Source: a virus
Lineage: Duplodnaviria; Heunggongvirae; Uroviricota; Caudoviricetes
Length of the DNA stretch: 36,774 bases
Virus record (IMG/VR): IMGVR_UViG_2778261162_000005
Direction: 5' to 3' (one strand)
In this document: positions 835-21,836 of the stretch, piece by piece
How the letters are laid out: each line of letters begins with the position of its first letter
Numbering within the stretch: position 1 is the first letter of the stretch
The notes under the pieces: generated by a model
Databases searched by the model: none
Told to the model about the DNA's origin: nothing
Seen by the model: only the letters and a program-made list of their open reading frames with translations
Program-made: the position numbers and the translations under genes

Positions 835-924
835 GTGAGTGCAGGCGTGATAACCGGCGTATTGCTGGTGTTTTTATTACTGGGTTATCTGGTTTATGCC
901 CTGATCAATGCGGAGGCGTTCTGA
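835..924 (+). CDS. kdpF: Potassium-transporting ATPase subunit F
   Basis: GTG start at 835; 29-aa hydrophobic peptide (M)[28 protein letters not shown]; stop overlaps kdpA start (TGATG). Confidence 0.8.
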
Positions 925-2132
925 TGGCTGCGCAAGGGTTCTTACTGATCGCCACGTTTTTACTGGTGTTAATGGTGCTGGCGCGTCCTTTAGGCAGCGG
1001 GCTGGCGCGGCTGATTAATGACATTCCTCTTCCCGGTACAACGGGCGTTGAGCGCGTACTTTTTCGCGCACTTGGCGTCTCTGACCGTGAGATGAACTGG
1101 AAGCAATATCTTTGTGCCATTCTCGGCCTGAACATGCTGGGGCTGGCGGTGCTGTTTTTTATGTTGCTCGGTCAGCACTATCTGCCGCTTAATCCACAGC
1201 AGTTGCCGGGGCTGTCGTGGGATCTGGCGCTGAATACCGCCGTCAGCTTTGTCACGAATACCAACTGGCAATCTTACAGCGGTGAAACCACGTTGAGCTA
1301 TTTCAGCCAGATGGCTGGCTTAACGGTGCAAAACTTTCTTTCTGCCGCCAGCGGGATTGCGGTGATTTTTGCCCTCATCCGTGCGTTTACCCGCCAGAGC
1401 ATGAGCACACTCGGGAATGCCTGGGTCGATCTGCTACGCATCACGTTATGGGTGCTCGTCCCTGTGGCGTTGTTGATCGCACTGTTTTTTATTCAACAAG
1501 GTGCGCTGCAAAACTTTCAGCCTTATCAGGCTGTGAATACCGTTGAAGGAGCGCAACAGCTGTTACCCATGGGGCCTGTAGCTTCTCAGGAAGCGATCAA
1601 GATGCTCGGTACTAACGGCGGTGGCTTCTTTAATGCCAACTCGTCGCATCCGTTTGAAAACCCAACCGCACTGACCAACTTCGTGCAGATGCTGGCGATC
1701 TTCTTGATCCCAACGGCGCTGTGCTTTGCCTTTGGTGAAGTGACGGGCGATCGCCGCCAGGGGCGCATGTTGCTGTGGGCGATGTCAGTGATTTTTGTCA
1801 TCTGCGTAGGCGTGGTGATGTGGGCAGAAGTTCAGGGTAATCCTCATCTGCTGGCGCTCGGCGCAGACAGCAGCATCAATATGGAAGGTAAAGAGAGCCG
1901 TTTCGGCGTGCTGGTCAGTAGCCTGTTTGCGGTCGTGACTACGGCGGCTTCCTGTGGCGCGGTGATTGCGATGCATGATTCGTTTACCGCTCTCGGTGGC
2001 ATGGTGCCGATGTGGCTGATGCAAATTGGTGAAGTGGTGTTCGGCGGTGTCGGTTCTGGTCTTTACGGCATGATGCTGTTTGTCCTGCTGGCGGTGTTTA
2101 TTGCCGGGCTGATGATTGGTCGTACACCGTGA
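924..2132 (+). pseudogene. kdpA: kdpA (potassium-transporting ATPase subunit A) truncated by prophage insertion; 402 codons retained
   Basis: ATG at 924 overlapping kdpF stop; multi-pass membrane protein [16 protein letters not shown]...MIGRTP then TGA at 2130. Intact KdpA is about 557 aa (recalled) and continues EYLGKK after GRTP; here non-kdp sequence follows. Confidence 0.85.
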
Positions 2133-2136
2133 TCAG

Positions 2137-2176
2137 ACATGAGATAAATGAAGGGGGATCTGTGAGATAAATAACG
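2137..2176. repeat. Terminal direct repeats, putative transposase-binding sites at prophage end
   Basis: ACATGAGATAAATGAAG (2137-2153) and TCTGTGAGATAAATAAC (2160-2176) share TGAGATAAAT.A, spaced 23 bp, beginning 8 nt inside an element end that starts TG. Confidence 0.5.
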
Positions 2177-2325
2177 AATTGGAGTGGGTTAACATGGGTT
2201 CTGGTGAACAGAACTGAAATTCTTTTCCGCTATACGATAGATAAGTCGGGCATTGAAATCATCCTTCCTGGCAACTTAGAATCGAGTTTGCTGAAACATG
2301 ACCCGCAACAAAAAGGATGATTCCA

Positions 2326-3237: not shown

Positions 3238-3636
3238 TTATCTGGATTTGTTAACGTCTTTCGTCTCCTCTGGCAGATCTTCATCAAACAACCTGCCCTG
3301 CATCCGATCCAGTTCTTCTTTTCTGACCCGCTTAACCACGCTGTAGACCCACTGAAGCGAAACACCAAACTTGCGGGCCAGTTCGTGGTGGTTGCGTCCG
3401 TTAAACTCCCTGAAGATTTCCCGGTCGCGCTGACTGACCTTCCATACCATGCCCATCGGGAAATAAACGTTTTGCCCGCCCCAGACCTGCATCATTCGGT
3501 TCGCGACGGCCTGACCAATCTGGTCGGCAATTGCGGGCTCAATATCAATAATCTCGCGAACGGTCTCAGAGGTATGCTGTGCCAGCTCCACCAGGAGTTC
3601 CGGCCCTTTACTTCGAAACTGATTCAGGTCGCTCAT
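3238..3636 (-). CDS. mor: Mor/C-family transcriptional activator
   Basis: 132 aa; block QNVYFPMG...RDREIFREFNGRNHHELARKFGVSLQWVYSVVKR matches the recalled Mor pattern (VYIP.G, FNGRN, ELA..YGVS, VY..I.R). Confidence 0.7.
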   Translation of the reverse strand: MSDLNQFRSKGPELLVELAQHTSETVREIIDIEPAIADQIGQAVANRMMQVWGGQNVYFPMGMVWKVSQRDREIFREFNGRNHHELARKFGVSLQWVYSVVKRVRKEELDRMQGRLFDEDLPEETKDVNKSR

Positions 3637-4060
3637 GTTTTACTCCCGCAGCTCTGTGCTGCCACTTCTTCAGTTTCTCAATAACACTGCTTGCCTGTTC
3701 AGTATTGAGCCAGCGCAGGGCGCTGATGCCCGTTTCCCGCTTGATCCACCGCGCTAATGCATTTTCTGAACGGTCACGAACAATGCCGGCAGCAGCCATT
3801 TCAAGCCATAGCGCACGGATTTTCCTGGACTGCGGATGGTTATCCAGCGGTAAACCGGAGCTGGCTTTTCCGGCAGGCTTAACGCGAAAGCCTTTCCTTT
3901 TCATGGATTCCAGCACGCAGTTTAGTTGTGTGGTATCCATTCCTTTGGTTGAGGCTTTACCGGTCAGCCCCTGTAACATCTGGCGGTAGGTGTCTTCATC
4001 CATACCCAGTTCATTACGGGCAATATGAATGAGCTGGATAAGACGTTGTTTAGTCATCAT
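3608..4060 (-). CDS. gemA: GemA-like protein (Mu gp16 / DUF1018 family)
   Basis: Start at ATG 4060 (MMTKQRL...) with AGGAG 5 nt upstream; LIQLIHIARNELGMDEDTYRQMLQGLTGKAS pattern typical of Mu gp16-like proteins; immediately upstream of mor as in Mu. Confidence 0.6.
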   Translation of the reverse strand: MMTKQRLIQLIHIARNELGMDEDTYRQMLQGLTGKASTKGMDTTQLNCVLESMKRKGFRVKPAGKASSGLPLDNHPQSRKIRALWLEMAAAGIVRDRSENALARWIKRETGISALRWLNTEQASSVIEKLKKWQHRAAGVKHERPESVSK

Positions 4061-4265
4061 CGTTGCTCCTTTTACCTGCGCCACCGATATAATCGACATA
4101 TAAAGGAAGCGCCACAGGCCAGCACAGGAACATCACCGACCAGCTAATCCAGTAGCCGGCACCACTGTAACGTGAATAAAACCCTGAACGGCGGTGCAGT
4201 TCAGCAGTACACCAACCGACAAAACAATACCAGAACAGGGCACATACAACAGATTCAGCAGTCAT
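4050..4265 (-). CDS. Small membrane protein (71 aa), hypothetical
   Basis: ATG 4265 preceded by GGGGGGA; MTAESVVCALFWYCFVGW...; two hydrophobic segments; overlaps neighbours by a few nt (translational coupling). Confidence 0.4.
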   Translation of the reverse strand: MTAESVVCALFWYCFVGWCTAELHRRSGFYSRYSGAGYWISWSVMFLCWPVALPLYVDYIGGAGKRSNDDD

Positions 4266-4485
4266 TCTGAATATCCCCCCAACTGATATGAATATTACGG
4301 GCAGCAATGACAGGGTCGTTATTCCACCATGCACCTGACATGTATTTTTCAACCTGTTCGCGTCCGGCAATAACACCAATTGTGATCCCCGGCCTGACGT
4401 TCTTAAAAAAGGCGCGGGCAAAAAGGTATCTGGCAGATATTCGGCAGGCTTTTAATTTCCGGCTGTTACCTGATAGCGTAATCAT
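4255..4485 (-). CDS. Hypothetical early protein (76 aa)
   Basis: ATG 4485 with GGAGG 5 nt upstream and ATGA overlap with the stop of the upstream gene. Confidence 0.45.
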   Translation of the reverse strand: MITLSGNSRKLKACRISARYLFARAFFKNVRPGITIGVIAGREQVEKYMSGAWWNNDPVIAARNIHISWGDIQNDC

Positions 4486-5165
4486 CTGGCCTCCAGTTTC
4501 TGTTGTTCCTGCCCACTGACCGGGCGGTGCAGTCTGACGTTCTGCCCTTCACGAAACCCCGCATAGCGCGAGGCGTCGCCATTGCGGCTTCTTCCCGGTT
4601 GACGCGCCCTGGTGGTTTGCGTTTGCGGGTATTTATGTTCCAGCCACTGTTGCATCAGTTCACGCTCATCATCGGTCAGGGCAAAGGACTGTATTTTACT
4701 GATAACGGCCAGTACCCAGCCTTCAGCAAACTGGTCTCCACGGCTGGTACGGGTGGCGTTTTTTATTCTTTTGTTCTGTGCGCTGATATACTGCTGACGC
4801 GCCTTTTTCAGCTGGCGGACCAGCACTTCCCAGGTGTACGCAGCCAGTGCCGCTCGTTCCCGGTTACCGTAGAACCCCACAGACGGATGCGTGCCGGGGT
4901 GAATGATGGAGTTAACACCAAATGCCTCGCGGATGATGTTCATCAGGCCCAGCATGTAGCGCGGTGGACGGAGACTGCCTGTCGGCCAGTAATGACTGAT
5001 GGTTTCATCAATATCACTCATAGCAATGTCGGAATGTGTGATGCCGTGAACATCCATCAGTTTACGGGCTCGGCGCAGTGCCAGAGCGGCCTCGTGCGGG
5101 TTGCCGGATGCGGCCAGCGCCAGCAACTTTTTCAGTTTCTCAATGTGTTTATTCTGGTCTGTCAT
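4482..5165 (-). CDS. Hypothetical early protein, DUF2786-like N-terminus
   Basis: Start at ATG 5165 (MTDQNKHIEKLKKLLALAASGNPHEAALALRRARKLM...) with GGAGA upstream; N-terminal motif resembles the DUF2786 family common in prophages (recalled). Confidence 0.45.
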   Translation of the reverse strand: MTDQNKHIEKLKKLLALAASGNPHEAALALRRARKLMDVHGITHSDIAMSDIDETISHYWPTGSLRPPRYMLGLMNIIREAFGVNSIIHPGTHPSVGFYGNRERAALAAYTWEVLVRQLKKARQQYISAQNKRIKNATRTSRGDQFAEGWVLAVISKIQSFALTDDERELMQQWLEHKYPQTQTTRARQPGRSRNGDASRYAGFREGQNVRLHRPVSGQEQQKLEAR

Positions 5166-5377
5166 TGTTCTGTATCTCCGGTATTTTTCTGCCGTTTCCA
5201 TGCCCGGACAGCGTCGGACAGCTCTTTCAGGCTGTATGCTGCTTTAAGCTTTTCCCATAACCACTGTGTTGTTATGTGCATCAGCAGGGCAGCCAGGGCT
5301 GCCCCCGCACTGAGGCATGTCGCCAGGCCAGTAAGAATCAGTATCCATGCGGTGATTTCCCTGAGTATGTCAGCCAT
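5162..5377 (-). CDS. Small membrane protein (71 aa), hypothetical
   Basis: ATG 5377 with GGGAGG upstream; one TM segment (WILILTGLATCLSAGAALAALLM). Confidence 0.45.
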   Translation of the reverse strand: MADILREITAWILILTGLATCLSAGAALAALLMHITTQWLWEKLKAAYSLKELSDAVRAWKRQKNTGDTEQ

Positions 5378-5391
5378 TGAATGCCTCCCGG

Positions 5392-5688
5392 TTACTCGTT
5401 CGTGTAAATCACGCCCAGTCGTGCAGCCAGACGTTCCAGTTTTTTCTGTTTGTGGAAGTCAATCAGCCGGTCCATCCCCTGAAGGCGCAATTGCTCTGTC
5501 ATGATTTCCACGTCTGCCAGCTCTGCCGCGAGGTCGCTTTCGCTGCCCTGTCTGTTCAGATTGCGGGCAGCACTGGCCGCCAGTTCAGCGGCCTCTTCTG
5601 TCAGTTTCAGGGCCTGTGCGTCCGGCCCGAAACGCTGCAGGGCCAGACGGTAGAGGGCGGTGCGGGTGAGTATGGTGTTCCGTGTCAT
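5392..5688 (-). CDS. MazG-like nucleotide pyrophosphohydrolase domain protein
   Basis: 98 aa with EEAAEL (E-E-x-x-E) followed 17 residues later by AELAD (E-x-x-D), the all-alpha NTP-PPase signature. Confidence 0.5.
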   Translation of the reverse strand: MTRNTILTRTALYRLALQRFGPDAQALKLTEEAAELAASAARNLNRQGSESDLAAELADVEIMTEQLRLQGMDRLIDFHKQKKLERLAARLGVIYTNE

Positions 5689-5697
5689 GCCGCGCCC

Positions 5698-5970
5698 TCA
5701 GTGCTTCCGGTCAACAATGATGTGCAGGTCGCCTTCTGCAGTGATTTCCATCCGGTACGGCACCTCGTGCTCTGCCGCGTGGGTGAGTGTGTTCACTAGT
5801 ATCTGCAGGGCGGCCTCCTTTCCGTTAGTCGCCACAATGGCCTGCGTGGCCATGCTGATTAACGCCGTCAGGGCGCACATGATATCGGTGAGGTCACGGC
5901 ATTCACACTCGTTGAGATACCGTTCAACAAGGGCGCGGGTGCGCTGATGTGCTTCCTGTGGGGTAATCAT
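5698..5970 (-). CDS. Hypothetical early protein (90 aa)
   Basis: ATG 5970 with GGGAGG upstream; ATGA overlap with the upstream gene stop. Confidence 0.4.
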   Translation of the reverse strand: MITPQEAHQRTRALVERYLNECECRDLTDIMCALTALISMATQAIVATNGKEAALQILVNTLTHAAEHEVPYRMEITAEGDLHIIVDRKH

Positions 5971-6161
5971 TGCGCTTCCTCCCTGTCAGGGCGGGAGAAT
6001 TCCATAACGGGCACATCTGCCGAAAAATGCTGACTGCAGTACGGACAGACCAGGGTGACGCGTACTGCAGGTACGTGGTATTTACCGGACATCACGGCGA
6101 TGGCGCTGTGAAAACGCAGGGCTGTTATATCCCTCTCGCACTGAATACATTTAAATATCAT
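5967..6161 (-). CDS. Small Cys-rich (zinc-ribbon-like) protein
   Basis: 64 aa with CIQC...CPYC pairs; GAGGAGAA upstream of ATG 6161. Confidence 0.45.
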   Translation of the reverse strand: MIFKCIQCERDITALRFHSAIAVMSGKYHVPAVRVTLVCPYCSQHFSADVPVMEFSRPDREEAQ

Positions 6162-6258
6162 AATTTAATTCTCCTCTGTTTCCGGCGTGCAGAAGCCCAC
6201 GGCGCTGACGCCGGAATAAAAAAGAAAATGTTTTTATTAAATAATTAACGTGGTGTGT

Positions 6259-6789
6259 TTACTGCACATCCTGCTCAAAAGGAATTATTGAAAAATCCTC
6301 AATATCACTTTTTATGGTAATGCCGGGAATATTTTTCACGGCCTCTTTTTCATTCAGAATGGCATCTTTATTTATTTCCTCTTTTACACGAATAAAGCGC
6401 TCAAGCCCCAGACGTCTCAGTAGTTCAATAACATTATCCGCTCCACGGATACTGACTGATGGCGGACGGTTTCGCCATTGCACCTCGCCGGTGGTGAGGT
6501 TAGCGAACTTCACCTTCCCGTTGCCGGTCAGTTCATCACGGTGTGCCTCACACCATGTCTGGATACCGGACTGCAGTTCTGACATGCGTTTTTTCAGGCT
6601 CTCGGTGAGCGGGGCATAACGTGCGGTGATATCGCCAATGGCGTCATTCATTTCTGTTTCAGCCCTGACCAGTTCACGTTGTGCGTCACCGAGCAGTCTG
6701 ATGCCCTCAATGACCTCTTCGCGTGTCCCCGGTACCCAGAGTGCCGCTGCGGACTTGATACGTTTTGCCCCTTTTGTACTTTTTGCCAT
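6259..6789 (-). CDS. gam: Host-nuclease inhibitor protein Gam (Mu Gam family)
   Basis: 176 aa; MAKSTKGAKRIKSAAALWVP...RPPSVSIRG...GITIKSDIEDFSIIPFEQ closely parallels Mu Gam as recalled. Confidence 0.85.
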   Translation of the reverse strand: MAKSTKGAKRIKSAAALWVPGTREEVIEGIRLLGDAQRELVRAETEMNDAIGDITARYAPLTESLKKRMSELQSGIQTWCEAHRDELTGNGKVKFANLTTGEVQWRNRPPSVSIRGADNVIELLRRLGLERFIRVKEEINKDAILNEKEAVKNIPGITIKSDIEDFSIIPFEQDVQ

Positions 6790-6816
6790 ATTTTATGATT
6801 TCTCCGGTTGTGCTGA

Positions 6817-7086
6817 TTACCACAAAGATTCCGGCCACACGACGCGACAGCCGTGCAGTTCGAAAACGCCCTGACGGAAATGTCCCCTGTGGTCATGACC
6901 GGTATACAGATAACTGGCTTTCCCCTGTTCAAGCATGCGCATGCAATGCGCACTCCGGGAAACGCGGATGACAGGTTTATTGCCCCTGATGGTGATGCTT
7001 TGTACATCCGTGTTCGTTGCCATAAGCGCCATAATGGCTGACTGCACTTTGCTGATTTGCTGGTTGATACCTGTGATGGATTTCAT
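6817..7086 (-). CDS. Hypothetical early protein (89 aa), same position as Mu kil
   Basis: ORF directly downstream of the B-like gene; no recognisable motif; positional analogy only. Confidence 0.35.
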   Translation of the reverse strand: MKSITGINQQISKVQSAIMALMATNTDVQSITIRGNKPVIRVSRSAHCMRMLEQGKASYLYTGHDHRGHFRQGVFELHGCRVVWPESLW

Positions 7087-7088: not shown

Positions 7089-8255
7089 TTAAACCCCTTT
7101 GACAACGTCAGCGTTGACCTGTGGAACCCCGATTTCAGCGGCCAGATTCATGGCGGCTATCACCAGGTTACTGACGGCCAGCGGATACAGCAGGCTGACC
7201 CTGTTTTTACGATGACTTCCCGGATTGCTCAGGCGGGCACGTATGGCATCCACTGCGCCGGCGTCCATAATGTCCGTCAGTTGTTTACCGGCCCGTTGCA
7301 GTTTGAACGTCAGAAACTCTTCAAGGTTATTGTCGAGAGGCAGAAGTTCGACCACCTCACAGCGCTGAACGACTTCACGGACTTCCATATTGCGTTCAGA
7401 CAGTTTTGTCGCCAGTTCCGGCTGGCCAATCAGCACGATGGACAGCAGTTTTTTGAAACCGGACTCCAGCTCAAAAAAGCGTTTGAGGTGTTTCAGTGTC
7501 GGAACGGGCAGACTGTGGGCTTCCTCAATCACCAGAACGTGGCTGAACCCCGCCTGGCGGCTGTCTTTCAGGACGCGATGCAGCTGGCGAAAGCGGGCGT
7601 CCTGACTGCGTCTGATGCTTTCCAGTGGTGCGATGGTACTGATAATGGCTTCGGCAATCGCTGCTGCCTTCAGGGTTTTCCCTTTCACATCGTTGTCTTC
7701 CATGGCGATGACGTATGGCTCGATAATAATTACCGGCGCATTCTCGCGGTTGATACGTTCAGTCAGGTCACGGCGCAGCGTGGATTTACCCGCACCGGAC
7801 TCACCGATGACAGCCATAAACCCGCCATGACGGGCTGTCTGGTACAGCGCCTCACGCACGTAGCGAATGTCCGGGGTGGTGAACACATCATCAGAACCCT
7901 GCATGGCTTCGTCGGCGAACGGGTCACGGAAAAGACCAAACGCTTTTTTGGTTGCTGGAAATAACACCTGTTTTTTGAGTAACATATTCTCTTCCTCACT
8001 GAGGCTCGTTTTATCTGTGGTACCCGCTGTACGGGGCGTGGCCGCGCCCTGTACAGCATCAAAACTCTTCGCTGTATCAATCCCCTGACTTTCCAGCCAG
8101 GACGCAAGACGCCGGCGCACTTCTCCGGGGCTGGTGCGGGGCCACGCGTTATGATTCACAATCTGGGCCAGCGTGGCCTCAGAAACATCGACAGCTCTCG
8201 CCACCACCGCCTGTGGAATACGGGCCTCTTTCAGTTGCTGCTTCAGTACCAGCAT
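7089..8255 (-). CDS. Transposition target-DNA activator, MuB-like AAA+ ATPase
   Basis: Start at ATG 8255 (MLVLKQQ...) with AAGGAGG upstream; Walker A GESGAGKST, Walker B-like HVLVIEEAH; immediately downstream of the transposase. Confidence 0.75.
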   Translation of the reverse strand: MLVLKQQLKEARIPQAVVARAVDVSEATLAQIVNHNAWPRTSPGEVRRRLASWLESQGIDTAKSFDAVQGAATPRTAGTTDKTSLSEEENMLLKKQVLFPATKKAFGLFRDPFADEAMQGSDDVFTTPDIRYVREALYQTARHGGFMAVIGESGAGKSTLRRDLTERINRENAPVIIIEPYVIAMEDNDVKGKTLKAAAIAEAIISTIAPLESIRRSQDARFRQLHRVLKDSRQAGFSHVLVIEEAHSLPVPTLKHLKRFFELESGFKKLLSIVLIGQPELATKLSERNMEVREVVQRCEVVELLPLDNNLEEFLTFKLQRAGKQLTDIMDAGAVDAIRARLSNPGSHRKNRVSLLYPLAVSNLVIAAMNLAAEIGVPQVNADVVKGV

Positions 8256-8265: not shown

Positions 8266-10035
8266 TTAGTTGCCGTTAACAATGCTGATAACGCTGCTGC
8301 GGGCCGGCGTGGTCAGCGTGGCCATGACTTCATCCAGTGCAGCTTCCGGTACGCCGTCCGGGTACTGTGCCGTTAACTGGCGGTAATGTTCCGGCGTCCA
8401 GGTAAGGCCGTTGGCGCTGAACTTCCCGCGCAGGGCTTTCGCGGCCTCCACATGAGTCATGGGACGCTGTTCAGTGCGCGGTCCGCGTACGTCAGAGGCC
8501 TGACCTCGCTTCGGCATATAGGCCGGAAGTGTGGCGTCATCAATATGTTTATACGGGTCAAGCCGCCCGCCGAACGGCAGCGCCTTCGCCTTGCGTGCGG
8601 CAGCTGCATCTGCGGCGTTGTCTGTACCGGTGACCAGCGCTTCGGTTTCTTTTGCCGCCGTCTGTGCCGGTGTTTCCGGCAGGGCTTTGTAACTTTCGCC
8701 AAATACCGCCGCGCCTTCAGCAAAGCCAAACTCGTTCTTTCTGACCTCTTCGACCAGGAAGAACGTCTCGTGGCCGTCCTCACCGGTCAGAACCACCTGT
8801 GCCACATCGCTGCGCCACGGGTTACGGGTAATCATCAGTTTTTCACCGACCAGTACGCCCGGTACCGTTGATACGTCAAATTCAGTGCCCCGGAACGAGA
8901 CACGAAGTTTTGGCGTGACTTTGCGGAGTTCTGGTGCCGCCACAGCCAGTTCACGGCATACCTCAACGGAAGGCGCTTTTTTCAGCTGCTCAGCAGTAAT
9001 CTTCAGCCAGATATCCGTGCGGGTTTTACCGTGGCGGCTGTGAACAGCCGTGGCGTTAAAGTGGCTGCGCCATTTCGCGGCCAGCGCGTTGAGTTCTTCC
9101 AGACTGTGAACCGGCCGGAACTTCAGACCCGGCTCCAGCTTGCGTTCGATAATGTCACGCGCCTTTTCCACCTGTCCGGTGGCGCGGGCGTTATGCGGCT
9201 TGTGCGCTATCAGGTCGATGCCCAGTGAGCGACACATGTTTTTCGTCATACCCGCGGTGTTTGCCGAGCCGGGGTCGAGATAGAGTATTTTCGGCACGCC
9301 GTGCAGCACGTCTGCGCCGCCACGCTCCTGCATGGCGTTGATAAGCACAGAACACAGGTTCTCACCGGATTCCGCCCCCGTCACATACTCAACGTAAATC
9401 CAGCCGCTGGCATGGTCGGTAATCTCGTAACTCCACACGCGGTCACTGGCGATACGGGCAAGGTTAGCGGGCTTGTTCTTGTAGAACTTCGCGCTGTCCA
9501 TCACCTGCAGCCCTTTATGTCCATTGCTCAGGTAGTAAAGCGTGCAGAGTGAGGCGTCAATCTGCCAGACATGATTGGGATGCAGACTGGCCACTTCGGT
9601 ATGTGGTGCAGGGGCATCCAGTTGTTCCGGGTGCAGGCCATAGTTACGCAGGGCACGGCTGATGGCATCTTCAGACAACGGGAAAAACTCACCGGTGGTT
9701 TCATCTGTTCTGCCTGCGGTGATAAAGCCGTTAGCCCGCAGGGTTTCCACTGCATCTGCGATGGAATAGAGACGCTTACCGTTCTTGCGGGTGGCCTCAC
9801 GCAGTGTGGCAGATATCAGCGCGGCTTCGTCGCGGGTCAGGGCGCTGCGCCCGGCATCGGCGCGTTTTTTGCGTTTATCAGTCACAGAGACCTCCTTCAG
9901 CCTGCGCAGCAGAGTGGCGCGGGACATGCCAAGTTCAGCACAGGCAGCGTCGTATACTGCACCGCGTTTACCATGCCCCGCGTCACGTGCCGCGCGGGCG
10001 ACATAAACCAGTCGTTCAGTCAGGGCAGCATTCAT
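8266..10035 (-). CDS. DDE transposase (Mu A-like, rve integrase core)
   Basis: 589 aa; N-terminal HTH region; catalytic-core candidates HVWQIDAS, YLDPGSANT and GQVEKA (D, D, E); GGAGG upstream of ATG 10035. Confidence 0.8.
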   Translation of the reverse strand: MNAALTERLVYVARAARDAGHGKRGAVYDAACAELGMSRATLLRRLKEVSVTDKRKKRADAGRSALTRDEAALISATLREATRKNGKRLYSIADAVETLRANGFITAGRTDETTGEFFPLSEDAISRALRNYGLHPEQLDAPAPHTEVASLHPNHVWQIDASLCTLYYLSNGHKGLQVMDSAKFYKNKPANLARIASDRVWSYEITDHASGWIYVEYVTGAESGENLCSVLINAMQERGGADVLHGVPKILYLDPGSANTAGMTKNMCRSLGIDLIAHKPHNARATGQVEKARDIIERKLEPGLKFRPVHSLEELNALAAKWRSHFNATAVHSRHGKTRTDIWLKITAEQLKKAPSVEVCRELAVAAPELRKVTPKLRVSFRGTEFDVSTVPGVLVGEKLMITRNPWRSDVAQVVLTGEDGHETFFLVEEVRKNEFGFAEGAAVFGESYKALPETPAQTAAKETEALVTGTDNAADAAAARKAKALPFGGRLDPYKHIDDATLPAYMPKRGQASDVRGPRTEQRPMTHVEAAKALRGKFSANGLTWTPEHYRQLTAQYPDGVPEAALDEVMATLTTPARSSVISIVNGN

Positions 10036-10038: not shown

Positions 10039-10950
10039 TTATGCCTCCAGCCCGTTAATCTGTGGCGTCGGCTCAGTCAGCCATGAAGGCGCGACATCGC
10101 CTGTTGGCTCGTCCGGCAGGTCAAATGTGGAGCGCAGGCTACGCGCTGTGCTTTCCAGTTGACAGACCAGGCCTGCCATGAAGTCTCTGGGGGTATCAAT
10201 CATGTTTTCAGCACAATATGCGCACAGTGTCTCAAAAGCGCTGGACAGTCGAACGGCGATGGCAGATTCCGCCTCAACCGCTAATGCTGTCACTTCCGCC
10301 CGCAGCTTCTTAACCTCCTCATCAGGCTCAGGCGGCTGAATACGGGATTTCTTCTCCAGTCTGGTGGAGAGTGAGTCTATTTTTTCATTTTTGTCGGCGA
10401 GTACGCGCTGTTGTGCTGCGTTGGTTTCGCGCGCTTCGCGCAGGGCCTGACGCAATTCACGTACTGACATGCGATCAACATCGTCAAGCGTCAGTCCTGC
10501 GACTGTGCCGCCGTCGGCCAGTTCAGCAAGGTCGTCGTCATCTTCAGCAACAAGTTCAAATAATTTTGCCTTACCTAAAAGCGACAACGTTGTCGCTTTT
10601 GGCTCTAGTTTTGGTGAAAGGTATTTCAAAGATGCTTTCATCATTCGTTGTGCTGCGCGCACATGCAGACCAAGTTGTTCTTCTACAATTCCAACAAAGT
10701 CCCCGTGTGGTTCATTTTCTTTGAGAATAATAAGTCGTTTACCTGCTTCCAGCATGGCCTCAGCGCTCTGTGCCATATAAAACCGAGCCTCATGAACTAT
10801 GCGATCACGCTCATAGGGCTGACCATCGCCAAACTGCTGCATGATCTCCATGCGATGCTGTGTCATGGCGTTCAGACTGACATTGAGATCATCCGACAGC
10901 GGTACCTCGGCGTTCAGTTCAGTGTTAATCGGTGATTTGGTGCGTCCCAT
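10039..10950 (-). CDS. Hypothetical early protein (303 aa), acidic with coiled-coil-like middle
   Basis: AAGGAG upstream of ATG 10950; sits between the Ner-like gene and the transposase, a position empty in Mu. Confidence 0.5.
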   Translation of the reverse strand: MGRTKSPINTELNAEVPLSDDLNVSLNAMTQHRMEIMQQFGDGQPYERDRIVHEARFYMAQSAEAMLEAGKRLIILKENEPHGDFVGIVEEQLGLHVRAAQRMMKASLKYLSPKLEPKATTLSLLGKAKLFELVAEDDDDLAELADGGTVAGLTLDDVDRMSVRELRQALREARETNAAQQRVLADKNEKIDSLSTRLEKKSRIQPPEPDEEVKKLRAEVTALAVEAESAIAVRLSSAFETLCAYCAENMIDTPRDFMAGLVCQLESTARSLRSTFDLPDEPTGDVAPSWLTEPTPQINGLEA

Positions 10951-10960
10951 TTATTACTCC

Positions 10961-11269
10961 TTACAAACGACTACCTGAAATGACACGTTGGTTGATTTCG
11001 TTAATGCGATCCTGTGCACGTGCCATCTCGTTACTGTGGGCCATAGCGATCTGCAGTAACTGGATGCCCGGCGCGAAACGCCCGTTTTCCAGTTTCAGGG
11101 CCAACCCTTCTTCAATGAGGGTGTTGAGTGCCCGGTTGATGTTTGCCGGTGACTCGTGCAGTGCTGCCGCCAGTTCACCGTTGGAAATACCGTTCAGGGC
11201 ATGACCGCGCAGCGCTTTGAGTACCCGGAGGATGCGACTGCCGGAGCTTGAAACATTCGTCTTACTCAT
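10961..11269 (-). CDS. Winged-helix DNA-binding protein (IclR/MarR-like HTH)
   Basis: Start at ATG 11269 with AGAGG 8 nt upstream; ILRVLKALRGHALNGISNGELAAALHESPANINRALNTLIEEGLA resembles an IclR-type N-terminal HTH. Confidence 0.45.
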   Translation of the reverse strand: MSKTNVSSSGSRILRVLKALRGHALNGISNGELAAALHESPANINRALNTLIEEGLALKLENGRFAPGIQLLQIAMAHSNEMARAQDRINEINQRVISGSRL

Positions 11270-11321
11270 CTGCATACCTCTTTTGCGATATGTGATAACC
11301 TTTTACAAAGACTCAAAATCT

Positions 11322-11510
11322 TCAGGCTGCCTGAGCTGTTGATTTCAGCCCCAACTTCACGGCGATTTCATGGGATTTACCGTAACGGGCTTTGGTCTGC
11401 CCATTGAGAACGCGGTATACCTCATTGCGGTTGTAGCCGTTTTCTTCTGCCCAGCGGGTGAAAGTGATCCCGCGCTGGCGGAAGAGAGCTTTGACTTGTT
11501 CTGCAGTCAT
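11322..11510 (-). CDS. Ner/Cro-like small DNA-binding protein, first gene of the early operon
   Basis: 62 aa; AAGGAGA 6 nt upstream; divergent from the repressor gene, the position Ner occupies in Mu. Confidence 0.5.
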   Translation of the reverse strand: MTAEQVKALFRQRGITFTRWAEENGYNRNEVYRVLNGQTKARYGKSHEIAVKLGLKSTAQAA

Positions 11511-11610
11511 CGTTGTCTCCTTTGTTGATGCAATGATGTTTGCCTTATGTGTGATAGATTATGGTGCAGATTATCTCACCAGTCAACTTAAAGAGTGCAG
11601 AAAAACTCAC
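11511..11610. promoter_or_regulatory. Divergent early/repressor promoter-operator region
   Basis: 100-bp gap between divergent starts; contains direct repeats AGATTAT (x2) within TGATAGATTATGGTGCAGATTATCTCA. Confidence 0.45.
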
Positions 11611-11949
11611 ATGATCGGGTTACGTATTAAAGAAGAAAGAGAGCGTCTATCTCTTACACAGCAAGGGTTGGCTGATGCTATAGGTGTGGCAAAGAGAACT
11701 TTCATTGATTGGGAAAAAGATCGCACTTCTCCTACTGCAGTGCAGTTATCTGCACTATCAGAAATCGGTGTAGATATTTTGTATGTAGTTACTGGGGTGC
11801 GGAGTCAGCCTGTTGTTGCACCTTATGTGTCACAAGAAAAGAAAGAGTTAATGGATGCATTCGACGAAATGAGCCCCGAACAACGGAGGGCAATTCTTGA
11901 GGTCGGCAAAGTCTTCATTCAACCCAAACCAAGCAAACTCGCAGGCTGA
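11611..11949 (+). CDS. XRE-family HTH repressor (c-like)
   Basis: MIGLRIKEERERLSLTQQGLADAIGVAKRTFIDWEKDRTSP is a typical XRE HTH; divergent from the early operon. Confidence 0.6.
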   Translation: MIGLRIKEERERLSLTQQGLADAIGVAKRTFIDWEKDRTSPTAVQLSALSEIGVDILYVVTGVRSQPVVAPYVSQEKKELMDAFDEMSPEQRRAILEVGKVFIQPKPSKLAG

Positions 11950-12035: not shown

Positions 12036-12065
12036 CCGGAAAGCATTGTGCTTTCCGGTTTTGTT
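12036..12065 (+). terminator. Rho-independent terminator after the repressor gene
   Basis: CCGGAAAG-CATTGTG-CTTTCCGG followed by TTTTGTT, between convergent repressor and Dam genes. Confidence 0.55.
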
Positions 12066-12829
12066 CAGAAGTTGCAGATTACCAGTTCACGGCGTGGCGT
12101 GGGTTTCCCCGCCAGACTGTAGTTGATATTCACCGTCTGTATGTTCAGTTCAGTGAACACCCGACGCATCTGCGGAATGTCATTCACCGAGATAATCATC
12201 TTTCCTCTGATGCACCGTGCCAGTTCTGCGAGTAGTGTGTAGTTCTCTTCAGGAAAATCCACACCATAGCCTTCCGTCCCCAGATAGGGCGGATCACAGT
12301 AGAACAGCGTGTGCGGACGGTCATAACGCTTAATGCACTGGTGCCAGTCCATGTGTTCTATCACCGTTCTGGAAAGCCGCAGGTGTGCCGCTGACAGTTC
12401 TTCTTCAATCCGTAGCAGGTTGAAGCGTGGCGGGGAGGTGGTGGAGGTGCCGAAGCTGTGCTCTGCCACCTTGCCCCCAAACGCCTGCTTCTGGAGGTAG
12501 TAGAACCGTGCCGCACGCTGGATATCCGTCAGTGTTTCTTCCGGGGTGATCTGCAGCCATTTGTAGATCTGCCGGCTAACCAGCGCCCATTTGAATTGGC
12601 GGACAAATTCTTCCAGATGATGCTTTACTACCCGATACAGATTTACCAGTTCACCGTTGATATCGTTAATGACTTCGATCTTGCTGGGAGTCTTGAGAAA
12701 ATAAAGTGCTGCTGCGCCGCAGAATGGCTCCACATAGCAGGTATGGAGTGGGAACTGAGGCAGAATGTGTTTGGCCAGACGACGTTTTCCCCCAATCCAG
12801 GGGACGATGGGTAAAGATTGTTCTTTCAT
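12065..12829 (-). CDS. DNA N6-adenine methyltransferase, Dam-like (D12 class)
   Basis: Start at ATG 12829 (MKEQSLPIVPWIGGKRRL...); FCGAAAL AdoMet motif and DPPY catalytic motif. Confidence 0.8.
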   Translation of the reverse strand: MKEQSLPIVPWIGGKRRLAKHILPQFPLHTCYVEPFCGAAALYFLKTPSKIEVINDINGELVNLYRVVKHHLEEFVRQFKWALVSRQIYKWLQITPEETLTDIQRAARFYYLQKQAFGGKVAEHSFGTSTTSPPRFNLLRIEEELSAAHLRLSRTVIEHMDWHQCIKRYDRPHTLFYCDPPYLGTEGYGVDFPEENYTLLAELARCIRGKMIISVNDIPQMRRVFTELNIQTVNINYSLAGKPTPRRELVICNF

Positions 12830-15121: not shown

Positions 15122-15472
15122 ATGAAAAGCCTGAAAAAATTCATTCCCCCTGTTAAAAAACCTCGCCTCAGCGGCTGGCTGCTGACCTCAGTGCTGTTGC
15201 TGGGCACCATCGCTCTGGTCTCGCCACAGCAGTTGCCTGTTGTGATCTACAAGCTGGCACTCATCACGCTGGCAGCAGTGCTGGGTTACTGGCTTGACCG
15301 TTCGCTCTTCCCCAAAGCCCGTCCCGGTCAGTACCTGAAACATGACGACAGGCTGATGGCTGAAGGGCGTTTCCCTGTGCAGACCGGCCTTCACCTTGTG
15401 TTTGCTGCTGCGTTAATCCGCCGTGCACTGATTGTTGCAGCGATCTGTCTGGCTGTGGCAACAGGACTGTGA
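15122..15472 (+). CDS. Putative holin (3 predicted TM segments)
   Basis: 116 aa, GGAGA RBS; three hydrophobic helices; first gene of the lysis cassette. Confidence 0.5.
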   Translation: MKSLKKFIPPVKKPRLSGWLLTSVLLLGTIALVSPQQLPVVIYKLALITLAAVLGYWLDRSLFPKARPGQYLKHDDRLMAEGRFPVQTGLHLVFAAALIRRALIVAAICLAVATGL

Positions 15473-15474
15473 CC

Positions 15475-16200
15475 ATGAACTGGCCTCAAATCACCCTCAT
15501 TATTCTGTTCGCCTTTGGTCTGGGCGTAACCGCCATCAGACACGGAGAACCACGTAACGATAAATACAGCTTCTGGTGGCAACTTACTGGCAACCTGGTG
15601 ATTGTCTGGCTGCTCTGGTGTGGCGGCTTCTTCAGTCAGGCCCGCGCAGCGCAGCCTCCGCAGGCTGCGCTGCAGTATCGCGATGATGTGATCCGTAATG
15701 CCCGGCTTGAATGGGGACTGTCTGCGCCGGTGGCTGATTTCGCTGCGCAACTGCATCAGGAAAGCGGCTGGCGACCTGATGCGATCTCGCCGGCTGGCGC
15801 TCAGGGACTGGCGCAGTTTATGCCTGCCACTGCCGACTGGATAAGCCAGTTGATGCCGGCGCTGAGCAGTCGAGAGCCGTTTAATCCGGCATGGGCTATC
15901 CGGGCGCTGGTCAGTTATGACCGCTGGCTGTGGCAGCGCGTCAGCGCCGCCAACGACTGCGAGCGTATGGCCATGACACTGTCGGGCTATAACGGTGGTC
16001 TGGGCTGGGTACAGCGGGACAGGCAACTTGCATCACAGAAAGGGCTGGACCGTACCCGCTGGTTCGGACATGTCGCCACGGTGAATGCCGGACGCAATGC
16101 TGCCAGCTGGCGGGAGAACCGTCATTATCCCCAGCGCATCCTGTTCACGCTGGCCCCGCGTTATCTCTCATGGGGAGGGGCAAGCTGTGTGGGTACGTAA
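15475..16200 (+). CDS. Lytic transglycosylase endolysin (SLT domain) with two N-terminal TM segments
   Basis: ESGWRPDAISPAGAQGLAQFMP is the SLT catalytic signature; about 55 aa of two hydrophobic helices precede it. Confidence 0.7.
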   Translation: MNWPQITLIILFAFGLGVTAIRHGEPRNDKYSFWWQLTGNLVIVWLLWCGGFFSQARAAQPPQAALQYRDDVIRNARLEWGLSAPVADFAAQLHQESGWRPDAISPAGAQGLAQFMPATADWISQLMPALSSREPFNPAWAIRALVSYDRWLWQRVSAANDCERMAMTLSGYNGGLGWVQRDRQLASQKGLDRTRWFGHVATVNAGRNAASWRENRHYPQRILFTLAPRYLSWGGASCVGT

Positions 16201-16840
16201 GTTACGGTCGCTGCCGTGGCGGGTCATTATGCTGGCCATTCTCCTGAACACCTTCCTGCTGGCGATCTGGTGGCTGGGATACAGCACAGGCCACGACCGG
16301 GCCTCCGCTGACGGTCAGGCGGCGCTCAGCCGCCTGCAGGCGGATTTTGACGGATACCGGGCAGAACAGGCCCGGCGTGAGGTGGCGGCGTTGCGCGCAT
16401 GGTCTGAGCGTTATCAGGAGCAGGTAGCCGCCGGGCAACGGGCTGAAGCTGGTTATCTTGAGCAGATTGCTCAACTGGAGGACCAGAACAAACAACTACA
16501 GGGGCAAATTAACGATGTCACACAGCGCTGGATTGATGAAAAAGGTAAGAGCCATCCCATTGAGTGCGTGTTTACTCGCGGTTTCGTGCGCCAGTACAAC
16601 GCCGCACTCGGATACGACAACGCATCCGTCGACACCGGTCATTCAGACTCAGTTGCCGCCGCTGGCACCGGCACTGGCGCAGCGACCGGGCAACCTGAAA
16701 CCGCTGACGCCCGGTTACGCAATTCGGGTGTCTCCCAGCTTGACGTCCTTGCCAACATCATCGACAACGCAGGGCAATGTCGTCGCTGGCGAAACCAGAT
16801 AAACGCGCTACTGGATGAACGGGAAGGATTACAGAAATGA
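16187..16840 (+). CDS. i-spanin (Rz-like)
   Basis: GTG 16187 with GGGGAGGGG upstream; basic N-terminus, one TM (IMLAILLNTFLLAIWWLGY), then coiled-coil-like periplasmic domain. Confidence 0.6.
   Translation: MWVRKLRSLPWRVIMLAILLNTFLLAIWWLGYSTGHDRASADGQAALSRLQADFDGYRAEQARREVAALRAWSERYQEQVAAGQRAEAGYLEQIAQLEDQNKQLQGQINDVTQRWIDEKGKSHPIECVFTRGFVRQYNAALGYDNASVDTGHSDSVAAAGTGTGAATGQPETADARLRNSGVSQLDVLANIIDNAGQCRRWRNQINALLDEREGLQK
16536..16802 (+). CDS. o-spanin (Rz1-like lipoprotein) embedded in +1 frame within Rz
   Basis: MKKVRAIPLSACLLAVSC... signal with lipobox-like Cys, then proline-rich body; fully nested inside the Rz-like gene. Confidence 0.5.
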   Translation: MKKVRAIPLSACLLAVSCASTTPHSDTTTHPSTPVIQTQLPPLAPALAQRPGNLKPLTPGYAIRVSPSLTSLPTSSTTQGNVVAGETR

Positions 16841-17163
16841 CACTGCAGGTTGAATTCTGGACGGTGGTGAGTTTTTTGCTCACCTTCATGGGGTTTGTGG
16901 GAGGGCTCGCCAAATGGTTGTTCAGTAAAACAGAAGAACGCCAGGCGGCACGATTCGCCTCCCTTGAGCAGGCCCTGCAACAGTCCGCCTCCAACTGGGG
17001 CGAACTGGAAAAAGAATTTATGCGATTTAAAGCGGATTTACCGCTGAATTATGTCCGTCGCGAGGATTATATCCGTGGCCAGACAGTCATCGAGGCCAAA
17101 CTGGACGCGCTCTACAACAAACTGGAAGTGGTACAGCAGTACCGCAATACCGGAGGTCAATAA
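16837..17163 (+). CDS. Hypothetical membrane-anchored protein (108 aa)
   Basis: GGAAGG RBS, ATGA overlap with Rz stop; one N-terminal TM. Confidence 0.45.
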   Translation: MTLQVEFWTVVSFLLTFMGFVGGLAKWLFSKTEERQAARFASLEQALQQSASNWGELEKEFMRFKADLPLNYVRREDYIRGQTVIEAKLDALYNKLEVVQQYRNTGGQ

Positions 17164-17474
17164 TGGTCGATATTACCCGGGTACGCCGTGAATCCCTGCG
17201 CTGGAGTCTGCTGGTTGCCCTGAACAAAACCCGCCCTTATACCGCCAGCGAGACGCTGCTGCTGGAAGTGTCCCGCGCCATCTACCCGGACACCACGCAA
17301 CTGGAGCTGCGCCGTGAGCTTGATTACCTGGCAGATCGCAAGATGGTGGAACTGGAGAAGAGGCCTTCCGGTGACTGGTTTGCCGATCTGAGTCGCCTTG
17401 GTGTGGATATTGTGGAATACACCGTGGAATGCGGCCCCGGTATTGCCCGCCCGGAAAAATACTGGAGTGAGTGA
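17163..17474 (+). CDS. Hypothetical protein (103 aa)
   Basis: GGAGG RBS; precedes the terminase genes. Confidence 0.45.
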   Translation: MVDITRVRRESLRWSLLVALNKTRPYTASETLLLEVSRAIYPDTTQLELRRELDYLADRKMVELEKRPSGDWFADLSRLGVDIVEYTVECGPGIARPEKYWSE

Positions 17475-17476
17475 TT

Positions 17477-18019
17477 ATGGGACGTCGCAGCAGCATTGAT
17501 TCTCTGCCGAAGGAGGTCCGTCGCTGGCTTGAGCGGGCACTGACGGAGAATAATTTCACCGGCTATGCAGAGCTTGAAAGTCTGTTGAAGGAAAAGGGGT
17601 ACAGCATCACCCGCTCTTCCCTGCAGCGGTTTGGCTACAAAATGGAGCAGCAACTGGCCCGGGTGCGGGCGGCAACCGAGGCAGCGCGTCTGCTTGCCCG
17701 GGAGGCCGGAGACGATCCTGATGACCGTTCAGCCGGGCTGATAACCCTCGTCCAGACCGAAATGACGGATATCCTGATGCGCCTGCAGGAGTCGCGGGAA
17801 AACGACGATCCCTTCGCCCGGGCAAAACTGCTGGCAACGGCTTCAAAAAATATCGCCACACTGACCCGCGCCTCGGTCAACCTCAAGCGCTATCAGGCAG
17901 AAGTCAGAGAGAGGGTTGAACGTGCTGCCGCTGCCGCCGAGAAAATTGCCCGTAAGGGCGGGCTCTCTGCGGAAGCCGTACAGGCACTGCGCCGGGAAAT
18001 TCTGGGGGTGGTATCATGA
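17477..18019 (+). CDS. Terminase small subunit, Mu gp27-like (DUF3486-like)
   Basis: ATG 17477 after upstream stop; position directly 5' of the large terminase; family assignment recalled. Confidence 0.55.
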   Translation: MGRRSSIDSLPKEVRRWLERALTENNFTGYAELESLLKEKGYSITRSSLQRFGYKMEQQLARVRAATEAARLLAREAGDDPDDRSAGLITLVQTEMTDILMRLQESRENDDPFARAKLLATASKNIATLTRASVNLKRYQAEVRERVERAAAAAEKIARKGGLSAEAVQALRREILGVVS

Positions 18020-19539
18020 CGGAGCTGCCGCCGCACATTCCTGACACCGCGAGTTATAAGGCCCCTCCCGTTCTGTTGCCCTACCAGCAGCGCTGGGTGG
18101 CAGATGCCTCTCCGCTTAAGGTGATAGAAAAGAGCCGTCGTACCGGTATTACATGGGCTGAGGCATCCGATAACGTACTGACCGCCGCCTCTTCTGCGCC
18201 AGCAGGCGGGATGAATGTGTATTACATCGCTTATAACCAGGACATGACCGTCGAATACATTCAGGCGTGTGCGATGTGGGCACGGGCATTCAACTATGCG
18301 GCCAGTGAAATTGAAGAAGGATTCTGGGAAGAGGACGACGACGACAAACACATCAGGACTTACACCATCAAATTTCCTGACTCCGGCTTTCGTATTGTTG
18401 CGCTCTCCAGCCGCCCGTCTAACCTGCGTGGCCGTCAGGGTATTATTGTTATCGACGAAGCGGCGTTCCATGAGCAACTGGACGAACTGCTGAAAGCGGC
18501 GCTGGCGATGCTTATCTGGGGGGGAAAGGTACGCGTTATCTCCACCCATGACGGTGACGACAATCCGTTCAATACGCTTATCGGGGATATCCGTGCCGGA
18601 CGTCAGGGAGGCAGCGTACATCGCATCACTTTCCGGGAAGCCGTATCTGAGGGGCTGTTCCGGCGCGTTTGTCTGCGCACCGGGAAGGAATGGTCGGAGG
18701 CATCCGAGCAGGCCTGGATGGCGTCAGTGTACAAATTCTACGGTGCCGGTGCATCCGAAGAGCTTGACTGTATTCCGGCCAACGGTGGCGGTGCCTGGCT
18801 GTCCCGAGCCCTGATAGAGTCCCGCATGTCCGCTGATACGCCGGTATTGCGTCTGACCTGCAAGGAAGGTTATGAGCTGCTGTCTGATGAGGTTCGCTTC
18901 CGCGAGACGCAGGACTGGCTTGATGAGCATCTGAAACCCTTGCTGGAGGCGCTCCCCGCTGGTGCCCGCTCTTTTCTGGGGCGCGACTTTGGCCGTAGCG
19001 GTGATTTGTCGGTGGACTATCCCCTGCTGCAGGAGAAGAACCTGATACGACGCGTGCCATTCGTACTGGAGTTGCGTAACGTGCCGTTCAGGCAGCAGGA
19101 GCAAATCACCTGGTATCTGATGGATGGCCTGCCCGGTCTGCTGGGTGCTGCGTTTGATGCCCGTGGTAATGGTGCCTATCTGGCTGAATACGCCATGCAG
19201 CGCTACGGCTCCAGCCGGGTTCAGCAGGTGATGCCAACCGAAGGCTGGTACCGGGAGCATATGCCTCCGGTCAAAGCTGCACTGGAAGACGGTAACCTGG
19301 TGGACTTACCAAAGGATGAAGACACACTGGATGACCTGCGGGCCGTTCAGGTGGTGAACGGTGTCCCCCGCGTGCCGGAGCAACGCTCAAAAGCAAAGGC
19401 TGATGGTGGTAAACGCCACGGGGATTCAGCCATCGCACTGGCGCTGGCGTATTTCGCCAGCCGTGAAATTAACAAAGGGCCGGTGAAGGCAAGCTCACGC
19501 CGTCGTCGTCAGGCGGCCCGTATGCTGGAGGGATTCTGA
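18016..19539 (+). CDS. Terminase large subunit, Mu gp28-like
   Basis: 507 aa; ATPase region with acidic IVIDEAAF Walker B-like motif; start overlaps upstream stop. Confidence 0.75.
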   Translation: MTELPPHIPDTASYKAPPVLLPYQQRWVADASPLKVIEKSRRTGITWAEASDNVLTAASSAPAGGMNVYYIAYNQDMTVEYIQACAMWARAFNYAASEIEEGFWEEDDDDKHIRTYTIKFPDSGFRIVALSSRPSNLRGRQGIIVIDEAAFHEQLDELLKAALAMLIWGGKVRVISTHDGDDNPFNTLIGDIRAGRQGGSVHRITFREAVSEGLFRRVCLRTGKEWSEASEQAWMASVYKFYGAGASEELDCIPANGGGAWLSRALIESRMSADTPVLRLTCKEGYELLSDEVRFRETQDWLDEHLKPLLEALPAGARSFLGRDFGRSGDLSVDYPLLQEKNLIRRVPFVLELRNVPFRQQEQITWYLMDGLPGLLGAAFDARGNGAYLAEYAMQRYGSSRVQQVMPTEGWYREHMPPVKAALEDGNLVDLPKDEDTLDDLRAVQVVNGVPRVPEQRSKAKADGGKRHGDSAIALALAYFASREINKGPVKASSRRRRQAARMLEGF

Positions 19540-21032: not shown

Positions 21033-21834
21033 ACTGGCGTACTGCATGACGCTTCCCCCGAAGCGGGCAATCAGCTACCTGAAGTCCAAAGGGTATCAGA
21101 TTACCTGGGACTGGGAAGAAATGTGGCAGGAAGCCCATGCCCGCGCCTTTACCGTCGCTAAAGTGACCCGCCTGGATATCCTGGAAGATATTCGTGGGGC
21201 ACTGCAGCAGGCTGTCGATGAAGGAAAAACCGATCGCTGGTTCCGACAGGAGCTGGAGCCGGCGCTGAAGCGCAAGGGATGGTGGGGACCGCGTGACACG
21301 ACTGACCCGGTAACGGGTGAGCCGGTCACCATTCAGCAGGGCAGTCCGTGGCGGCTCGATACCATCTTTCGCACCAATATGTCCGTACTCTACAGCGCCG
21401 GTCGTTGGGCGGAACAGATGGAAAACGTCGACGACAGGCCGTACTGGATGTATACCGGCATCAACGACAGCCATACCCGCAGGAGCCATCTGGCGCTGCA
21501 TGGTCTGGTGCTGCGCTGGGATGACCCGTTCTGGCAGGCATTTTACCCGCCGAACGGCTGGCGCTGCCGCTGTAGTGTGATTGCCCTGAGTGCGGCGGAT
21601 GTCCGTGCCCGTGGCCTGAAGGTTATCAGCTCCGGCTCTGCCATGGGCCGGGAACTGAAACTGGTCTCAGAGAAAACCGGCGAAATGCGGAACGTGGCCA
21701 CCTTTAATACCGGCACCACGAAGGTGACCACCGACGTCGGCTGGTCTTATGCTCCGGGGGCAGCATACCGTCCCGACCTGGCCCGCTATCAGGGTACGCT
21801 TCAGCCACTGGCACAACAGGAACTGAGAGGATAA
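21013..21834 (+). CDS. Head morphogenesis protein, Mu F-like (gp30)
   Basis: Follows the portal; RRSHLALHGLV and WRCRCS region is typical of F-like minor head proteins (recalled). Confidence 0.65.
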   Translation: MSVTTAELAYCMTLPPKRAISYLKSKGYQITWDWEEMWQEAHARAFTVAKVTRLDILEDIRGALQQAVDEGKTDRWFRQELEPALKRKGWWGPRDTTDPVTGEPVTIQQGSPWRLDTIFRTNMSVLYSAGRWAEQMENVDDRPYWMYTGINDSHTRRSHLALHGLVLRWDDPFWQAFYPPNGWRCRCSVIALSAADVRARGLKVISSGSAMGRELKLVSEKTGEMRNVATFNTGTTKVTTDVGWSYAPGAAYRPDLARYQGTLQPLAQQELRG

Positions 21835-21836
21835 CA

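Follow-up and report, generated by a model that had tools for sequence, protein, structure and literature searches.

What interrupts the potassium uptake gene kdpA at this Escherichia coli locus, and by what route did the interrupting DNA arrive there? The window analyzed here, 36,774 nucleotides in full, corresponds to the full length of one contig, NTPL01000037.1, from the draft assembly GCA_002463795.1; it opens in bacterial chromosomal DNA and breaks off at 36774 inside a phage tail-fibre gene. We consider it very probable that the intruder is a phage of the BcepMu group, a temperate and transposable myovirus, that integrated into kdpA by DDE transposition.

The host side of the junction is straightforward. 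From the start of the window, the gene order is the end of rhsC, ybfA, kdpF, and kdpA, and many complete E. coli chromosomes match this whole interval (1-2129) with 100% nucleotide identity. The kdpFABC operon begins with kdpF (835..924, plus strand), which is intact; it matches Pfam Potass_KdpF and carries that name in the 100%-identical locus of strain GE3 (L004). Translation of 924-2200 shows that kdpA starts with the ATG at 924 and runs through 402 sense codons to ...AGLMIGRTP, followed by a TGA stop at 2130-2132 (plus strand). The segment 924..2129 (plus strand) is the 5' portion of kdpA and comprises codons 1-402, the full-length reference having 557. In GE3, where kdpA is uninterrupted, the same ...ACACCG is followed by GAATATCTGGG (EYLGKK...), the product is 557 amino acids long, and kdpB, kdpC, and kdpD lie downstream. 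The first-pass annotation of this DNA had read kdpA as open for 402 codons, stopped by a TGA at 2130, and continued by unrelated sequence, and it had suggested aligning 1-2129 with an uninterrupted kdp locus. Both the translation and that alignment, with 100% identity up to 2129 and divergence thereafter, bear this reading out.

From 2130 onward, the DNA is foreign and begins TGATCAGAC, TGATCAGACATGAGATAAATG. When an 801-base query spanning the junction was compared with 5,426 complete E. coli genomes, matches to its phage half started at query position 400/401, which corresponds to window position 2129/2130, and the host genes adjoining these matches were unrelated to one another (yfaV, gcl, flgA, fliC, and clbG among them). 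The kdpA-phage junction itself was found in none of the 5,426 genomes with this query. The first 201 bases of the element, used as a query, were matched with at least 80% coverage in 124 complete E. coli genomes, and the left-end neighbors again differed from genome to genome, including irp1, kefF, yfaV, yejF, fepE, otsA, and an amino-acid permease gene. Since the matches beside unrelated host genes start at this nucleotide, 2130 is the true terminus of the element. It follows that KdpA ends after Pro402 because the phage supplies the stop codon, the TGA being made of the first three bases of the prophage.

The left terminus (5'-TGAT..., 2130..2180, plus strand) carries two repeats that resemble transposase sites, TGAGATAAAT at 2140-2149 and at 2163-2172, spaced 23 bp apart. 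A complete 38,313-bp copy of the phage contains the 9-mer GAGATAAAT in three places only, two near the left end (+12 and +35) and one, in inverted orientation, 35 from the right end; at 12 from the right end, there is a degenerate version, GCGATAAAC. The earlier statement that the foreign DNA starts with TG and carries terminal repeats therefore stands, the repeats being real and present at both ends of the complete copy.

Closely related copies of the phage in complete genomes reveal what the window can show only in part. The prophage portion of the window (2130-36774) differs from the copy in fepE of strain JNEC-KY180 by 3 mismatches in 34,645 bases and from the copy in otsA of strain M-17 by 6 mismatches, in both cases without gaps. 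These two prophages, each 38,313 bp long, are thus collinear with ours and 99.98 to 99.99% identical over the 34.6 kb in the window, and only the insertion site differs (fepE or otsA versus kdpA). Because at most 6 bases in 34.6 kb set the copies at the three loci apart, the phage is evidently still moving among E. coli lineages, as judged from these near-identical genomes.

All seven complete copies that we delimited, each in a different host gene, are flanked by an exact 6-bp direct repeat of the target (TCCTGT, TCCAGC, GCTTTT, CATTGT, ACGACC, TCTGGC, and ATGCAT). In each of the seven, both halves of the target have been kept and the ends read 5'-TGAT...GCGCATCA-3', that is, 5'-TGAT...ATCA-3'. 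For copies inside annotated genes such as fepE, otsA, and rlmI, both halves of the interrupted gene are marked partial by PGAP. On the strength of these seven copies, ACACCG at 2124..2129 (no strand assigned) is predicted to be the left copy of the target-site duplication in kdpA. The target-site duplication of Mu is 5 bp and that of Tn552 is 6 to 7 bp. The first-pass annotation had expected a 5-bp duplication; given that the duplication of this phage family is 6 bp, a search for a 5-bp repeat would target the wrong thing. A variant of that idea, a 5-bp duplication plus one variable terminal base, was taken from the first copy and dropped when all seven copies gave an exact 6-bp repeat. A text search of the literature for a published duplication length in the BcepMu group, the original BcepMu and B3 genome papers lying outside its range, gave nothing useful.

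The right side of the insertion lies beyond the window; the phage right end is expected about 3.7 kb further on, together with a predicted second ACACCG and kdpA codons 403-557, and our description of this end is taken from the 99.99%-identical copies. The constant N-terminal part of the tail-fibre gene (36233..36774, plus strand) is cut by the contig end, and the last 26 bases of the contig (36749-36774) fall within an approximately 55-bp repeat (GTTGGTGTGCCTGTTCCNTGGCCNTC-AGCCACACCGCCAACAGGGTGGCTGAAATG). Each prophage contains 5 to 6 copies of this repeat, which occur in either orientation and head the alternative C-terminal cassettes of the tail fibre. The cassettes and, beside the repeat, a 190-aa Gin-like invertase with Resolvase and HTH_7 domains are found at 37681-40628 and 40724-41296 of record L001, and the order of the cassettes differs among strains JNEC-KY180, M-17, A31, and 12089. 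This arrangement is that of a multi-cassette tail-fibre inversion system. The assembler stopped at 36774 because the contig end falls in a multi-copy repeat.

A simple insertion into kdpA is the outcome we predict, because the seven sister copies behave in this way. It would join the phage right end ...CGCGCGGCGCATCA to ACACCGGAATATCTGGG, giving ...GCGCATCA-ACACCG-GAATATCTGGG. An exact search for the predicted right junction, GCGCGGCGCATCAACACCGGAATATCTGGG, returned no match in species-representative genomes, a collection that very probably does not contain this draft assembly. A less tidy history, in which a deletion, an inversion, or recombination between copies removed or relocated the distal part of kdpA together with kdpBC, is conceivable given that the right junction lies outside the window and that some E. 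coli genomes carry 2 to 4 copies of this phage family, which could recombine. Replicative transposition of Mu yields adjacent deletions and inversions, a precedent that speaks for such rearrangement, whereas stable Mu lysogens come from non-replicative integration, which speaks against it. More directly, all seven complete copies are simple insertions with both target halves and the 6-bp duplication, and the window shows no sign of a second copy. We consider a rearranged locus unlikely.

The high-affinity K+ pump Kdp is probably lost in the lysogen, as judged from the gene structure. The first-pass annotation had taken the high-affinity K+ uptake system to be inactivated; kdpA itself, the growth phenotype aside, is almost certainly inactive as a direct result of truncation at residue 402 of 557. 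The missing residues, 403-557, presumably include the fourth pore repeat. Furthermore, with about 38 kb of phage DNA in between, the kdp promoter would no longer serve kdpB and kdpC. In solved KdpFABC structures, such as 5mrw and 6hra, it is the full-length KdpA that serves as the K+-binding subunit. Read-through into kdpA'-kdpBC from the invertase gene, which is the rightmost gene of the phage and points outward, is possible but would not yield a working KdpA. For K+ uptake, E. coli has two further systems, Trk and Kup. A lysogen without the Kdp pump would depend on these two, and because they remain, a growth defect would be expected at very low K+ only.

Conversely, the kdp promoter, which is induced by K+ limitation and is located upstream of the phage left end, might act on the prophage in a lysogen no longer able to overcome K+ starvation by means of Kdp, by making an accessory gene or the activation of the late genes K+ responsive, a form of host-promoter capture. 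Transcription from the kdpFABC promoter would enter a 53-aa open reading frame (ORF) on the plus strand (2326-2487) and then run antisense to a 210-aa ORF (2491-3123, minus strand), mor, and gemA. A scan for promoters and terminators around the junction did no better than on shuffled sequence and yielded only weak terminator-like hairpins, at chance level. We regard promoter capture as improbable. For the two left-end accessory ORFs, of 53 and 210 aa, Pfam and PADLOC gave nothing, and the PHROGs that they match have no assigned function. Their absence from the phage variants in A31, M114, and MS20655 (L003, L023, and L024) gives them the look of cargo genes.

To the right of these ORFs lies the distal part of a leftward early/middle operon (3238..7086, minus strand). 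Besides small ORFs and the gene for a DUF2786 protein, it contains the genes for Mor, GemA, and Gam, with Pfam matches to Mor, GemA, and Phage_Mu_Gam. It is followed, on the same strand, by a transposition ATPase of the AAA_22/ExeA type with a role analogous to that of MuB (7089..8255) and by a DDE transposase of 589 aa in which the rve core is the only recognized domain (8266..10035). The lysogeny switch region (10039..11949) comprises a DUF3102 protein and two small HTH regulators (10039-11510, minus strand) that face a divergent HTH_3 repressor-like gene (11491-11949, plus strand). A Dam-type N6-adenine DNA methyltransferase (12065..12829, minus strand; Pfam MethyltransfD12, E = 1e-27; PADLOC MTase_II) was the sole match in a PADLOC scan of the accessory ORFs. 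The interval between repressor and lysis genes (11950-15100) varies among similar prophages: here it holds Dam and four small hypothetical ORFs, and in other copies (L003 10280-11570, L024 26004-28219, and L015 950-3165) it is occupied either by the gene for an NA37 nucleoid-associated protein together with a 401-aa ORF or by different hypothetical genes.

The late genes (15122..36230, plus strand) were assigned from the annotation of the 99.99%-identical copy and from Pfam. They start with holin, SLT endolysin, and spanin and continue with a Mu gp27-like small terminase, the large terminase, a Mu-type portal, Mu F and Mu G homologues, protease, and capsid. The tail genes specify a P2-type contractile tail (sheath, tube, tape measure, gpU, X, D, V, W, J, and I). 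The window contains no tRNA gene, and the annotation of the identical copy contains no tyrosine integrase, its sole recombinase being the 190-aa Resolvase and HTH_7 invertase. The absence of an integrase and of a tRNA site, noted in the first-pass annotation, thus holds, and insertion sites vary. A site-specific temperate phage that uses an integrase and an attachment site was rejected on these same three grounds.

What kind of transposable phage this is can be read from its transposition proteins. The transposase is 68.5% identical to BcepMu gp9 (over 98% of the protein), 69.4% identical to its counterpart in phiE255, and 98.1% identical to that of Escherichia phage PhiKM; in an alignment with the transposase of Pseudomonas phage B3 that covers the entire protein, the identity is 56.6%. 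In profile searches, it matches Pfam rve only, with none of the Mu-transposase Pfam domains in its 589 aa, and PHROG 310 ("transposase"). The ATPase is 59% identical to BcepMu gp8 (E = 3e-167) and matches AAA_22 (E = 2e-20) and PHROG 296 ("DNA transposition protein"). By BLASTP, the transposase has no similarity to MuA (E = 0.45) and the ATPase none to MuB (E = 1.6), and Mu is not among the 69 phage records matched by the transposase in a tblastn search. Among species-representative genomes, 204 from Enterobacterales, Betaproteobacteria, and Pseudomonas encode a relative of the transposase. By these sequence criteria, the element belongs to the BcepMu group, not to Mu.

The proposal that it might nevertheless be a true Mu-family prophage (Muvirus, with MuA/MuB and a 5-bp duplication) draws on a considerable list of likenesses to Mu (NC_000929). 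Both transpose at random by means of a DDE enzyme with an ATPase partner, have TG...CA termini, and use no attachment site. Homologues of Mor, GemA, Gam, gp27, the portal (Portal_Mu), F, and G are present, and complete copies carry an invertible tail-fibre segment with a Gin-like serine invertase at the right end. However, these shared modules do not extend to the transposition proteins themselves, which are not detectably related to MuA and MuB, and the rve core is the only Pfam domain in the transposase. In addition, the early operon is inverted relative to that of Mu, the sequences of the ends are unrelated to those of Mu, including the Mu left end, the layout of the left end is different, and the duplication is 6 bp in seven of seven copies instead of 5 bp. 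We find membership of the Mu family very unlikely. Accordingly, two statements of the first-pass annotation hold in part. It had described a DDE transposase with a MuB-like ATPase: an rve DDE transposase with an AAA+ partner is indeed there, but the ATPase, at 59% identity to gp8 and E = 1.6 to MuB, is a functional analogue of MuB and not a homologue that sequence comparison can detect. It had also named Mu-type transposition as the natural explanation: as to mechanism this stands, with a predicted Mu-like DDE strand transfer, and the element is transposable, has TG...CA ends, and occupies many sites, but with MuA and MuB unmatched and a 6-bp duplication, its transposition machinery is not related to that of Mu.

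Assignment to the BcepMu group, in contrast, accounts for both proteins and genome plan. BcepMu (NC_005882) and phiE255, of the genus Bcepmuvirus, share with our prophage the transposase (68.5 to 69.4%) and the ATPase (59%), and also a bottom-strand early operon (Mor, GemA ... ATPase, transposase) that runs toward the left end and faces a divergent repressor, followed on the top strand by lysis genes, Mu-type head genes, and a P2-type tail. The ends of BcepMu are alike as well, reading 5'-TGA...TCA-3' with paired GAGATA(A/T)(A/T)T sites 23 bp apart (TGAAGAGAGGTGAGATATTTCC...GCGCGATATTTCC). This is consistent with published accounts of BcepMu, which describe a bottom-strand early operon, a transposase of the Tn552/IS1604 family, TG...CA ends, and a P2-like tail (PMC2771037, PMC2628397, PMC2920897). 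Differences exist too. Our prophage resides in an enterobacterium, its DNA is too dissimilar to that of BcepMu to be matched by megablast, and the left-end and central accessory genes are not the same. It also possesses a Gin-like invertase and a set of alternative cassettes for the tail fibre, whereas BcepMu was reported to lack any inversion system (PMC2771037).

The B3 group of Pseudomonas phages is more distant. The B3 transposase is related along its full length (56.6%, as given above), and the B3 early operon is inverted relative to those of Mu and D3112 (PMC5977238), but phages of this group are siphoviruses with different structural genes (PMC2771037). Further away, the likeness to Tn552 and IS1604 consists of an rve-type DDE core and an adjacent gene for an ATP-binding partner, in keeping with the placement of the BcepMu transposase as a distant member of the Tn552/IS1604 family (PMC2771037, PMC2628397).

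By homology to BcepMu, B3, and the Tn552 family, the insertion into kdpA would have proceeded as follows. The transposase would bind the paired GAGATAAAT-like sites, 23 bp apart, at both phage ends, and the rve catalytic core would expose a 3'-OH at each terminal CA. With help from the AAA+ partner ATPase, these ends would then be joined to the target with a 6-bp stagger, and repair of the stagger would leave the phage flanked by a duplicated ACACCG.

We attach almost no weight to the idea that the junction is an artefact, either a chimera produced in assembly, the window being a contig of a draft assembly, or host DNA carried on packaged virion DNA, as transposable phages do package flanking host DNA (PMC2920897, PMC2771037): the join falls on the exact terminal nucleotide that more than 100 genomes set independently, which a chimera would not respect, the host part is 2.1 kb of one unique locus, whereas packaged host DNA is heterogeneous and would not be expected to give a single junction, and the record is a bacterial genome assembly.

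The insertion of such a phage into kdpA is in itself an ordinary event. Public genomes already contain prophages that are essentially the same as this element, an isolated phage is closely related to it, and E. coli prophages of this kind have already been labelled Bcepmuvirus by prophage predictors (bioRxiv 10.1101/2022.05.07.487787). The closest isolate is Escherichia phage PhiKM (PQ738613), whose transposase, as noted, is 98.1% identical and whose DNA matches 65% of the first 20 kb with 94% identity; two further phages, Escherichia phage Phi06_2974 B and Klebsiella phage KP12, are also among the closest known. As a natural case of insertional mutagenesis caused by a transposable phage, the locus is a clean one; it opens no new biological question. 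For annotators, it is of practical use that "Mu-like" prophages of this kind in E. coli use an rve transposase of the BcepMu/B3 type and that their insertions should be delimited by the TGAT...ATCA ends and the 6-bp duplication, not by the 5-bp rule of Mu.

Several observations on the wider distribution of the phage can be added. In the public collection, 10,922 blocks contain the exact 192-aa tail protein I of the prophage. In several chromosomes of about 4.7 to 4.8 Mb (L013-L018 and L020), the phage has one common right flank, with genes for an amino-acid permease, GlpM, a response regulator, and a porin, which suggests a copy that has become fixed in one widespread lineage. A solo relic of the left end, about 145 bp long and 89.7% identical, occurs in about 140 E. 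coli records. It starts TGCATCAATGAGATAAATG, and in one example 4001-4144 of L029 (plasmid pFY26-1) matches window positions 2139-2283. The relic adjoins IS remnants, with no phage genes nearby. Among all left-end matches, 105 are on plasmids, and most of the relics listed are on plasmids of 160 to 295 kb, many of them from poultry isolates.

As to other lesions in kdpA, short contigs from Logan and ENA with an exact 402-aa KdpA product were considered as possible further cases of the same insertion and rejected: in these, kdpA is cut by contig ends, and one carries E403*. Because the collection is so large, chance coincidences of this kind are to be expected. The E403* change (GAA to TAA; 2028-2030 of L006, an ENA metagenome contig; protein P0001) is an independent null allele of kdpA that affects the codon right after the phage insertion point, and the 144-aa distal KdpA ORF that derives from it is recorded on 204 contigs. 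On account of this independent allele and the spread of its distal ORF, disruption of kdpA appears to be recurrent in E. coli.
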